DNA of 62,982 nt, filler included, from Dugesia japonica (taxonomy: Eukaryota), in the NCBI GenBank assembly GCA_001938525.1. It is 6 parts of 6 records of this genome, joined end to end, with 100 filler letters (N's around TTAATTAATTAA, not from the genome) between each part and the next. Parts side by side here need not be neighbours in the genome. Positions count along the whole stretch, not along the records: positions 1 to 11,942 come from MQRL01205673.1; positions 12,043 to 21,575 come from MQRL01419578.1; 4 more parts are not named here. One strand, written 5' to 3'. Both the position numbers and the translations under genes were made by a program. The notes below the pieces were generated by a model, which saw only the letters and a list, made by a program, of their open reading frames with translations, was not told where the DNA came from and did no database searches. This document shows, piece by piece, positions 11,731 to 16,379 of this stretch. Position 1 is the first letter of the stretch. The number at the start of each line of letters is the position of its first letter.

Positions 11731-11942
11731 AGTAGATAGATAGGAGGACACTAGAACAAAGTAGGTCGACGGGGGTCCCCCGTTGCCATGGCAACCAATG
11801 TAGGCCAAGGTCGTTGCCATGGCAACCACCTTAGCAACGGTATCTAGGTCATTGGCTACCATCGCAAACGCCTTAGCAACGGTATCGAGGATGTTGGTTA
11901 CCATGGCAACCGTCCTTAGCAACGGAAACTAGGTCAAGGTCG
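11731..11942 (+). repeat. Element terminus AGTAGATAGAT followed by ~40-bp subterminal repeats containing RFX X-box palindromes; truncated by gap
   Basis: GTTGCCATGGCAAC twice, GTTACCATGGCAAC once, repeated CCTTAGCAACGG and AGGTCA. The first 27 nt closely match the reverse complement of 15689-15715. Confidence 0.6.
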
Positions 11943-12042
11943 NNNNNNNNNNNNNNNNNNNNNNNNNNNNNNNNNNNNNNNNNNNNTTAATTAATTAANN
12001 NNNNNNNNNNNNNNNNNNNNNNNNNNNNNNNNNNNNNNNNNN
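11943..12042. other. Artificial scaffold-joining spacer (N44-TTAATTAATTAA-N44); same spacer centred at 21620, 30472, 38916 and 53984
   Basis: Identical six-frame-stop 12-mer centred in N runs five times. Confidence 0.95.
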
Positions 12043-15000
12043 TCATTTATAATTTTATAAGGTCCTACATATCTATTATCCTGTTTATCTCTTATGTCTA
12101 TTTTTACCAGTACATTCTCACCAATTTTGAAATTTCTATGAATTCTTTTATCATTATTGTAATCATTAATCATATTAGCCCAATTAATCATTTCCTTTCT
12201 TTCGCACTGAACATCATTGAACAATTTCATATATTCTAATGAATCTTCGCAAGTTGGGATTTCATGCATAAACATTTCTTTGTTTATCTTTTTGCCAAAA
12301 ACAATTTCTGCTGGGCTACATTTCAAACTTTTTTGGGTTGTCGCATTCAAAGCAAATTCTATATGTTGTAGTGCATCTTCCCAATTTTTTTGTAATTGGT
12401 CCTTTAAACTACAAGATAGCCAATCTCTTATTGTTCAAAATTGTCTATCTATTTGTCCATTAGCTTAGTGACTTGAATAAATAATATCAAAATTAAATCT
12501 TTCTGACAAATTTCGTAATAAATTTGATTNNAAACCTTTGCCTCTATCTACATGAATTGTTTTAGGGGTCCCAAATTTTAAAATTCATTCATTTAAAAGT
12601 AATTTCGTGATGGTCCTTTCATCTTGTGATGTTACAGCCTTTAAAATGGTATATTTACTAAATTGATCAATTATAGCAAATATCTATTTCTTTCCAGTTA
12701 ATGTGGTCTAAAATGGTCCGCAAAAATCAATAAAAATGCATTGAAATATTTCATGTACATTACTTTTAACCATAATTTCCTTAGTTTTGCATGTCAATGT
12801 TTTACGTTTTTGACAAAAGTCACAACATTTAATAATTTCTGTGATAGTTTTATTCATATTTGTAAAATTATATGATGCAGAGATATAATTAATAAGTTTA
12901 TTAATTCCGGCTTGCTACATCTCTTTGTGTATTTCAAAAAAAAACTCCTGTTTTCTTTCTTCGTGGATATATATTTTATTTTTCTGACTAAAAACTATGT
13001 TTTTATCCATATAAAATTTACTTTCTGGTTTGTCATTGATTCTTGATATTATTGAATCAATTTCCTTACATTTGCTTTGCCATTTATATTCATTTTTTAT
13101 ATCTTNNNNNNNNNNNNNNNNNNNNNNNNNNNNNNNNNNNNNNNNNNNNNNNNNNNNNNNNNNNNNNNNNNNNNNAATCTTCTATATTTAACCTTGATAG
13201 GGCATCAGCGTTATTGTGTGATTCACCTTTACGATATTCTAGAATTATATCCAAACTACTTATGAAATTTATCCAGTTTTGAAATTGAGCTGTTATTGGT
13301 TTTTTTGTTGTCACCATAAAAGTGATTGCCTTATGGTCTGTCTTTAAAATGAATTTCTTTCCATATAAGTAATGTTTGAAATGTTGTACAAAGTGAAAAA
13401 TTGATAAAAATTCCTTACTAGTTATTCAGTATACAATTTCATGTTTATTCATGCTTTTCGATCTATATGCAATGATGACTTCTTTTCCATATTCATCATT
13501 TTGTGATAAAACTGCTCCCATTGAATCAAAACTTTCTTCTGTATCTAAAATAAATGTTTTCAGAAAATTTGAATGTCTTAATATTGGTGTTTTTGTGAGA
13601 ATTTCTTTTAGATTTTTTAACGCTTCTTCACATTTTTCAGTCCTAATTTTACCTCTTTATTCCCAATTAATTCTTCCAATGGTCTGGCAATTTTAGAATA
13701 ATCTTTTATGAATTTGCGATAATAATTTGTTAGACCTAAAAAGCTACGAAGATGTTTAGTGCATCGAGGTTTTCCAAAATTGTATATCGCTCCTATCTTT
13801 GAATTATCGGTTTTAATTCCTTCCTTATTTATAATATGACCTAAGATCTTTAATTTGGATACTAAAAAATTGGATTTATCTGGATTTATTTTTAGCCCCG
13901 ATTTCTTAATTCGTAAAATTATTTTTTCAATCCTTTCTTTATGTTCATTTAAATTTTTTGAAAATACTAATATATCATCGAGATAAACAAGAGCCCCTTT
14001 ACACATCATGTCTCCAATAATAATTGACATCAATTTTTGGAATGTCGATGGAGCAGCAGCAATACCAAATGGCATTCGGTTTTCAATCACACCAATACTA
14101 TTATTAAAATTATTCAAACAATCATCATCACACTCAAACATACTAGTCCTCATATCATTAATATCATATCTTACATGTAATTTATGGCTCCTATCATTTC
14201 CCCGTTGACTGGAGCCTTGACATTTCCAAAATCATCATTGTTAGCATCTATCTCGTTTGTCTCGTCATCATATAGAGCAGCAGCTTGATTTCTTTTATTG
14301 GTAGGATAGTATCTGTCATCTCTATGGTATTGGTCATTGTTGTAATATTTGACTTTGTTTTTAATATTCATTCATTTGTCGGTGTCTCCAAATGATAACA
14401 TTTATAACTCAAATGTCCTCTTCGATTACAAACAGAACATCGGATATTTGGACAATCACGGCCTAAGAGTCCAAATTCATGGCATCCATAACATTGCCTA
14501 GATTCTTCATTTTTATTAAATTGGACATATTTTCTCTCTTCTCTACTTTCTGGATACAGTTGTCTTGTTTGTTGACACATTTGATGTTGAATTGAATTCG
14601 TTGGTTTCTTTAATGAATATTTCTTTGATTGTTGGATTTCTGGAATTTGTCTTTGATCATTGCTGTATTTGGATTTTGTTGATATTTTAAAACTTCAGTA
14701 TATGATTGTTTTTCTATCGCATTGATTTGTGCCACTGGTTTTTTTTATCGATGCGATGCAAAATATTTTTGATATATTTGCATGGAGTTGGACCTTTCTG
14801 TACGTTTTCAGGATCGATTTGTTCATTTTCTTTAAATATTTTCCCTCTTAATAAGTCTTCAGTCATTTCATATCTTTGAATTTCTTCCTTCTGTGTTTCA
14901 TTGTCAAGACAATGTTTCAGAAAAAATGCGATCAATTTAGTACTGGTTAATTTATGTCGCAAAACGTTTTTAACGTTTTTTTCAATTTTTGAAATGTATA

Positions 15001-15310
15001 CATCTACCAAATCATTTCTTCTTTTGTAATTTAGCAATTTGATTAGATCGTCGGCTAAATTTGGGCTTTTTAAAAATACATTTTGCATTCTTTTTTCATA
15101 ATCTTCTTCTGTAGTTTGGTCAAATTCTAATCTTAACTCTTCGTCTAAATATGCTCTGATAACAATATTTTGTTGGTTGTTGTCGAGCTGGATCATTGAA
15201 AAATATTGCTCTGTGCTCTTCAAATATTCTTCAACATCATAATTTATGGTAAATATTCTTGCCTCAGGAAGAATTTGTAAAAGATCTTTCGTGGATAACG
15301 TGGTCGCCAT
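12043..15310 (-). mobile_element. Degenerate Ty3/Gypsy element: gag, two CCHC knuckles, partial RT, RNase H, integrase; protease and RT N-terminus deleted
   Basis: Gag MATTLSTKDLL (14714-15310); knuckles CYGCHEFGLLGRDC and CSVCNRRGHLSYKC; RT RMPFG..APSTFQ..VYLDDILVFS; RSFLGLTNYYRKFI; YRKGESHNNADALSR; integrase C-terminal SPAEIVFG and RYVGPY. Confidence 0.93.
15299..15309 (-). promoter_or_regulatory. Primer-binding site TGGCGACCACG, complementary to a tRNA-Arg-type 3' end; overlaps the gag start
   Basis: Minus strand reads ...ATAACA|TGGCGACCACG. The reverse complement CGTGGTCGCCA matches the 3' end of animal tRNA-Arg(CCG/TCG) as recalled, not searched. Confidence 0.7.
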
Positions 15311-15532
15311 GTTATAAAGAAGTCCAACTAGAGTTTCTAAAATATATTTTTTGATAATATGACATAATCGGCTCCTATATATATTGTTTTAGAAGATAGC
15401 AGTCTTGCTGAAATCTATGATATAATAATATGGGACTAAAACAAATAAATTAACATTTCTAACATGCACACATACAATCAAACATAATTAATTTATACGA
15501 GCACTGAGAGATGATTTCGTAATCATCTCACA
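15310..15532 (-). repeat. Putative 5' LTR (~220 bp) of the minus-strand Gypsy element
   Basis: TG...CA termini (TGTGAGATGA...TTATAACA on the minus strand), TATATA box inside, immediately followed by the PBS. Confidence 0.55.
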
Positions 15533-15539
15533 ATCTATA

Positions 15540-15715
15540 AAAACCATGATCCATGATCTACAAAAACGATGACTCATGATCTGTAAAACGATGAGTCATT
15601 GTGTTTGTTCCAGTCATCGATGAGTCATACCTATGACTTATTGTCTTTGTTATAAAAGTTCTTTGTCTGGGGAGAGGTGGGAGGGGATGTTCTAGTGCGC
15701 TCGTATCTACCTACT
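15540..15715 (-). repeat. Element terminus AGTAGGTAGAT with a C-rich tract and an AP-1-like (TGA[CG]TCA) site cluster
   Basis: atctacctact at 15705-15715; GGGGAGAGGTGGGAGGGG tract; GATGACTCAT once and GATGAGTCAT twice within 15565-15630. Confidence 0.55.
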
Positions 15716-15929
15716 TGACTTTTAATCGCACTTTCAATGGGGAAGAAATTATTTTACGATACAAGTTTATGAGACAATCCTATCTTACATTTTAATTTCT
15801 TATCTAATGGTTTAAACAAAAAAATTTGAAACATTAAAACAAAAAAAATTAAAACAATAAAACAAAAAAACTATATTAATATTAGATTTTCACGGGGAAT
15901 TCAAATATTAAGTCTGCCTGAAGAAGTAA

Positions 15930-16379
15930 CACTTGAAACACTTCGACCAATCAGAACGCAGGATACCATATCCCTTTGACCTTGAAACGTTTGGACCAAT
16001 TAGAGCACAGAGCCAATTAGTATCCATTGACTTTGAAATGCTTTAACCAATCAGATCAATGGATACTGTATCAATTTTACCTTCAAACACATCGACCAAT
16101 CAGAACGCATGATACTATATCACTTTGATCTTGATACAATTCAACCAATCTGAGCACAGGATACTATATCGCTTTGACTTTGAAAATATTTCGACCAATC
16201 AGAACAGAGTATAATGTACCTGTTTGACCTTGAAAATTCGAACTTCAAATTTTCCAACTATCAGAATTGAGTATACTAGATCATGGACCAACCAGGATCA
16301 AATATACTTCATCAGTGACCTTGAAATAATTTGACCTTAAGGGGGGAGGGGTGATACAGTGCTCCAGTATCTACCTACT
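15930..16379 (-). repeat. Element terminus AGTAGGTAGAT with ~49-50-bp tandem subterminal repeats (CCAAT box plus TGACCTTG)
   Basis: CCAAT(C/T) at about 15947, 15996, 16047, 16096, 16145 and 16195, each unit with TGA(C/T)(C/T)TTGA. G-tract at 16341-16351; atctacctact at 16369-16379. Confidence 0.7.

Follow-up and report, generated by a model that had tools for sequence, protein, structure and literature searches.

The stretch of Dugesia japonica DNA analyzed here (the window; 62,982 nucleotides from assembly GCA_001938525.1, G+C 27%) consists of six scaffolds joined by linkers of the form N44-TTAATTAATTAA-N44, and it contains a family of element ends that begin with AGTAG[G/A]TAGAT. [quoted passage not shown] We observed a shared core, one element in which two ends pair in inverted orientation, arrays that differ although the core behind which they lie is the same, and the repeated status of the ends. 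The analysis covered the window, whose scaffolds are fragmented and about 8–15 kb long, and public contigs. Because the linker at 11943..12042 places the end at 11731 on a separate scaffold from those at 15715 and 16379, the interval 11731..16379 is not a single element.

The exact sequence AGTAGRTAGAT was found at 11731(+), 15715(−), 16379(−), and 61370(−). As these four occurrences compare with 0.08 expected in the window, and with a maximum of two across 100 dinucleotide shuffles, the ends pointed out in an earlier, sequence-only reading of this DNA were confirmed as real. When one mismatch was allowed there were six matches versus 1.65 expected, a number reached in 2 of 100 shuffles. Over their first 70 nucleotides (nt) the exact ends aligned to one another with p=0.003–0.043, and similarity between ends ceased after 28–41 nt. 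Two further ends that had been described as weaker, 78(+) and 58379(+), also aligned significantly to the others over this distance, less strongly than the exact ends did (p=0.003–0.05). The CAC spacer and the C/G tract said to be present in most ends were each found in four of the six, the CAC in register at 11731, 15715, 16379, and 78 and the C/G tract at 11731, 15715, 16379, and 58379. The core itself (AGTAGATAGAT...CACT...AACA) occupies 11731..11758(+); together with a C-rich tract it occupies 15669..15715(−) and 16341..16379(−), and the weaker end at 78..110(+) has no clear array behind it. A decayed end whose array is gone was located at 52264..52302(−) by its alignment to the 16379 end (p=0.003). 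No alignment of the candidate at 9638(+) with the nine others fell below p=0.05, and it was attributed to chance. Pattern scans gave 0, 1, and 0 matches in viral contigs and 18 in metagenome contigs, all 19 loci having unrelated flanks and being likewise ascribed to chance; viral contigs scanned at the protein level yielded no relative, and 52 short open reading frames (ORFs) near the ends had no Pfam match.

Behind the core, each of the four exact ends carried its own set of motifs, in excess of the shuffles in every case (p=0.001 for each; array counts at the ends are of distinct sites tested against 1000 dinucleotide shuffles, which break tandem structure, so that the p values speak to clustering and not to selection). 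At 11731 this was a 42-bp tandem array (11782..11942, +, truncated by the scaffold end) with three X-box palindromes, two of them exact 14-mers, extra half-sites, and two CAAGGTCR sites. The 15715 end had a 23-bp tandem array with three perfect AP-1 sites (15533..15640, −), and the 16379 end a 49-bp array of about six units (15932..16340, −) combining a CCAAT box with a CAAGGTCR-type site, in which we counted four extended CCAAT boxes (seven bare CCAAT) and three CAAGGTCR sites. The exact end at 61370 was followed by three extended CCAAT boxes (60911..61370, −). The earlier claim that every end has an array of its own therefore held for the exact ends and faltered at the two weaker ones, where 78 had a single AP-1 site (p=0.065) and 58379 had a C-rich tract and a 77-bp duplication containing two bZIP-type sites (58379..58600, +; p=0.003). 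The arrays were confined to few places: of 125 window tiles, 5 contained at least three sites of one motif, four at family ends and one at a T-box-type array at 27979–28620. This last array had seven copies of GGTGTGA versus 0.04 expected, several of them in TGTGAA..TTCACA palindromes, and lay upstream of capsid-like and PLA2-like Polinton remnants at a distance of 0.6–1.3 kb. As the motif definitions were selected after the sequence had been inspected, we also searched, without bias toward any motif, for GC-containing 8-mers that occur in clusters; this search returned six loci, three of them at family ends, and missed the AP-1 array.

One complete element, which the sequence-only reading had not described, was found at 22280..23327. 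It is non-coding and 1.05 kb in size, with two inward-facing family ends, one X-box per arm, and 12 TTRCGTMA bZIP-type sites. Its arms, 22284–22347 and 23259–23323, matched in inverted orientation over 65 nt at 81.5% identity (E 5e-12), and there was more inverted similarity further inward, from which we concluded that the family forms TIRs, as seen in this one element. Self-match aside, the 11731 end aligned better to the end at 23327(−) than to anything else in the window (score 48, p=0.003). These two ends were alike through the core and first X-box and then diverged, one into X-box/AGGTC and the other into bZIP arrays, indicating that one core goes with different arrays. A pairing of 58379 with 61370 was rejected, since the flanks showed no target-site duplication (TSD) and the arms differed.

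The repeated status of the ends was apparent from public contigs. Depth was 12,635 inside the 16379 end and about 6-fold lower, 2,136, in the next outward bin; summed contig depth is not copy number, yet in the low-copy flank beyond 16532 it was more than 100-fold lower. One of the eight contigs listed ended exactly at 16379. The 15715 end is best explained by insertion into the 16379 element at a point 664 nt within it, and depth and loose ends suggest that the repeated AT-rich stretch at 15716..15931(−) is the interior of the 16379 element that received it. A 15715-type core was joined to a different interior in one public contig, and there was a hint, in one contig with an overlap of uncertain length, of a CCAAT-type interior joined to the AP-1 array. 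Immediately beyond the 16379 end, the 20 nt at 16380–16399 matched the first 20 nt of that end at 13 of 20 positions when compared by eye, and could represent either a nested end of greater age or a duplication of the terminus.

We consider it probable that the family belongs to the Polinton/Maverick elements. Vertebrate Mavericks are described, in passages of PMC8097293, as having (AGT)2 or (AG)3 ends, TIRs of 46–1447 bp, and 6-bp TSDs. The ends in the window begin AGTAGG or AGTAGA and thus share five of the six bases of (AGT)2, the sixth being G or A and not T, and TIRs of the described length were present in one element only, 22280–23327. Remnants of Polinton genes were found on three of the six scaffolds, all three with family ends. 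They comprise a broken capsid gene with an adenain protease remnant (19115..20901, −), the capsid-like and PLA2-like remnants mentioned above (29261..30427, +), a fragment of a presumed protein-primed DNA polymerase B (pPolB) gene (55284..56113, +), which the 61370(−) end faces from about 5 kb, and an integrase fragment (−) together with a TBP-like fragment (+) within 61659..62457. The pPolB fragment was recognized by its match (tblastn E 1e-13) to the C-terminal part of a large ORF on L020, a related Polinton contig of 12.7 kb that carries ATPase, integrase, capsid, and protease genes and was retrieved via an alignment of 15 capsid homologs; the ORF had no polymerase match in Pfam, and the label was inferred from its size and context. 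The TBP-like copy in the window (62077–62457, +) was 29% identical to L020 10246–10698 (E 1e-12), which itself matched Pfam TBP (E 2e-10). At 11222–12067, L020 has an inferred TIR of about 850 bp that starts with AGTAGT and continues into three tandem units of 57–63 bp containing CATGCGCGCAT, which we take to be NRF1-like. L020 is a near-complete Polinton in a bacterial genome bin, where it is likely a contaminant. A TBP-like gene is also named in a figure legend of PMC8502044. As far as the passages of PMC8097293 and PMC8502044 go, AG-start ends, conservation that falls inward, inverted arms, and capsid, protease, integrase, and PLA2-like neighbors are common to Polinton/Maverick TIRs and the ends studied here; the differences are that the window ends read AGTAGR and not (AGT)2 or (AG)3, that core genes are not enclosed in the window, and that those passages mention no subfamily-specific transcription-factor arrays.

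Several observations weigh against the reading we propose. Besides the departure of the ends from (AGT)2, no end pair in the window encloses Polinton genes, and the remnants at 19–21 kb and 61.7–62.5 kb lie outside their nearest ends, 16379 and 61370, respectively. Two of the three scaffolds without Polinton genes also carry family ends, and therefore co-location of ends and genes is not enriched. The L020 end showed little likeness to the family beyond AGTAG (best p=0.03 of eight tests). At the paired element the TSD matched at five of six positions only after a 2-nt shift, for which the chance is about 0.08, and the left end matched the core at 6 of its first 11 nt. Depth climbed again at 16415–16492, 35 nt beyond 16379. 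There was no loose-end cluster at 15715 or 16379 among the 24 rows listed in each of two comparisons (with 707 and 2846 further rows) and no pile-up of starts or ends there among the matches listed. Finally, no family end preceding the T-box-type array reached significance (p at least 0.098). The position 27933(+), considered as a decayed end preceding that array, was rejected at the same level. Taken with the evidence above, the earlier identification of Polinton/adintovirus-type ends gained from the AG starts and the inverted pair and lost from the absence in the window of a pair enclosing pPolB, integrase, or major capsid protein genes, and the five-of-six match at the paired element decides little about the 6-bp TSD that it anticipated.

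Some of the same observations would fit a cut-and-paste superfamily with purine-purine termini, such as Kolobok, Harbinger, or ISL2EU, carrying the same arrays, with 22280–23327 an ordinary miniature inverted-repeat transposable element (MITE). The sole complete element is short and non-coding, the window encloses no Polinton genes between ends, a full 6-bp TSD was not seen, and high copy depth is typical of MITEs. The target sites of the three superfamilies are TTAA, TWA, and AT. In the window the bases outside the ends varied among copies, with no constant TTAA, TWA, or AT (the copies are few and some are decayed). Promoter-motif MITEs are known, as described for CERP2/CELE2 in part of bioRxiv 2022.01.21.477252. 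Against this origin stand also the AGTAG start, which is five-sixths of the commonest Maverick end motif, the long imperfect inverted arms, and the Polinton-rich neighborhood, and we regard it as rather unlikely.

A different objection concerns the arrays and not the elements. Their resemblance to host motifs could be incidental, the arrays being either tandem repeats of subterminal position that are neutral or sites for a protein that the element itself encodes. Tandem amplification alone explains the counts, for which the shuffles are no control, and the question therefore becomes whether the amplified unit matches host motifs beyond luck. Several of the motifs are short palindromes. Conservation within arrays was not significant: between tandem units, the CCAAT motif columns scored 0.86 versus 0.62 for the other columns (p=0.06), and the corresponding tests gave p=0.44 for the X-box and p=0.26 for AP-1, results that likewise tell against our proposal. 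On the other side, five arrays matched five different textbook motifs, including an exact 14-bp X-box palindrome and a unit with both CCAAT and CAAGGTCR. In addition, of 22 difference rows listed for two arrays (141 further), eight fell at motif positions, and at all eight most other copies had the textbook letter and were thus nearer to the motif than the window copy; these eight were read by eye, and reads of sister units may have been aligned to the wrong unit. Neutral arrays seem to us unlikely on balance. Among the listed holders of this sequence, none was registered as RNA. Raw RNA reads covered the arrays; in X22 and X23 most first mates mapped to the minus strand, which for the majority of libraries points to RNA directed toward the terminus. 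Agreement of the loose ends at 0.8–0.97 suggests few source transcripts, and the X21 reads were mainly a poly(A) artefact. There was no pile-up of RNA starts at the arrays among the matches listed, a result that neutral repeats would also give, and the RNA reads are neither for nor against promoter activity.

The arrays might instead serve replication, with host factors acting at Polinton ends as auxiliary origin elements in the manner of NFI and Oct-1 in adenovirus inverted terminal repeats (ITRs). The part of PMC6410123 on the adenovirus ITR describes a core origin followed by a single NF-I site at nt 23–36 and an NF-III site, all in fixed places, together with gain of sites by recombination. 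A fixed terminal core followed by host-factor sites is common to both systems, and the first sites in the window lie 45–90 nt from the end. The adenovirus sites, as described there, are single, conserved, and fixed in spacing for the same factors; those in the window vary in identity, number, and distance, belong to unrelated factor families, and form multi-copy arrays spread over 100–450 bp. For these reasons we prefer an enhancer or promoter role, which plausibly fits the anatomy better, and the origin analogy drawn in the sequence-only reading emerged as the weaker of the two. We think it quite unlikely that the arrays are principally such origins. The two roles are not mutually exclusive, and a gene-less 1.05-kb element with arrays is compatible with either.

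The 15715 end required separate consideration, as a gag-like ORF starts about 400 bp inside it. The region 12045..15309(−) is the internal part of a gypsy element, with a primer-binding-site-like TGGCGACC, the gag-like ORF, reverse transcriptase, RNase H, and the end of an integrase, and is a passenger outside the end family. Its 5′ long terminal repeat (LTR) is 223 bp long (TGTGA...TAACA; 15310..15532, −). One contig aligned over 15440–15533 and then continued unaligned, and another aligned over 15312–15494 and was followed by 958 unaligned nt. These departures at 15533 and 15312, the TGTGA/TAACA limits, and the primer-binding-site-like motif indicated that the gypsy element is an insertion inside the AP-1 end, best read as a later one 183 nt within it and not as the owner of the 15715 end. 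An LTR boundary at 15464 was rejected because contigs crossed it. At 15311–15313, the first ATG of the gag-like ORF overlaps the final CA of the LTR and the primer-binding-site-like TGG. The U3 regions of LTRs typically contain AP-1 arrays, and such an array together with the gag-like ORF and primer-binding-site-like motif behind the 15715 end could suggest that AGTAG is itself the 5′ end of an LTR, a very improbable reading given that the true LTR has TGT...ACA limits at 15532–15310, each supported by one contig, and that the family ends form an inverted pair and not a direct repeat.

Other features of the window lie apart from the end family. Past the 16379 end, and before a diverged RPS19 pseudogene at about 16560–16870(−) whose Pfam match (E 5e-6) was below the cut-off, lies a separate high-depth repeat patch (16415–16495). 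The window genes are of animal type, including an intronless actin (42761–43906, −) and an MRPS30 exon (1315–2286, +), and no tRNA genes were found in the window. There is a second gypsy pol (5978–8799, +) and a piggyBac-type transposase fragment (47299–47685, −). Repeat units of about 314 bp, arranged in blocks of which some are direct and others inverted (385 nt at 98%), occupy 24292–27393 and contain a stretch like the second half of the end core. At 38972–39953 a 24-bp tandem array has 41 copies with several reading frames open, and at 51529–51566 the 8-mer AAACCGGT occurs four times in 40 bp, probably as the end of another transposon.

If the ends are subfamily-specific TIRs of the kind we propose, a series of steps could account for them. 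The shared core of about 28 bp is predicted, from Polinton biology, to be the integrase and protein-priming site. Each array would result when a short unit bearing a motif is amplified in tandem, and one array would give way to another between subfamilies, as in retroviral LTRs. Host RFX, AP-1, NF-Y, NR5A-type, and bZIP factors may then bind them and set the cells in which each subfamily is open and transcribed, so that the arrays would act as enhancer or promoter modules resembling homotypic enhancer clusters and the modules of HERVH LTR7. Motif swapping between subfamilies is established for retroviral LTRs. In HERVH LTR7 (PMC8912925), motif modules particular to each subfamily are assembled within a terminal repeat through duplication and recombination, much as proposed here, the differences being that HERVH LTR7 is a retroviral LTR with tested promoter activity, and that the D. 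japonica family is a DNA element with homotypic tandem arrays known from sequence alone. The CERP2/CELE2 MITEs of Caenorhabditis are likewise short inverted-repeat elements that disperse transcription-factor motifs; in the portion of bioRxiv 10.1101/2022.01.21.477252 concerned, they involve one regulator with co-option shown, and here several motif types stand behind one core. Swapped transcription-factor arrays in the ends of Polintons or other DNA elements were not found in the literature searched, Repbase and subscription papers being outside our reach.

A tentative extension is that planarian Polintons partition host cell states as LTR subfamilies do, with RFX arrays for ciliated cells, AP-1 for wounds, NF-Y plus NR5A for stem or germ cells, and bZIP and T-box arrays besides. 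Non-autonomous copies could spread the arrays, offering a ready supply of enhancers and a sequence-level cause of tissue-specific activation after loss of smedwi-2. According to parts of PMC8532177, planarian Polintons are silenced targets of piRNAs, and the tissue-specific derepression of planarian transposons is put down to changes in chromatin as cells differentiate; nowhere in its main text does the word motif appear, and the arrays therefore offer a sequence-level cause that can be tested. If the proposal is true, the cell types in which elements are accessible and derepressed should follow from the kind of array they carry, in existing data from assays for transposase-accessible chromatin and piwi RNA interference, and the cause of the tissue-specific awakening of planarian transposons could thereby be tested directly. 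It would also illustrate how a lineage of integrated DNA viruses may come to vary in cell tropism with its origin unaltered.

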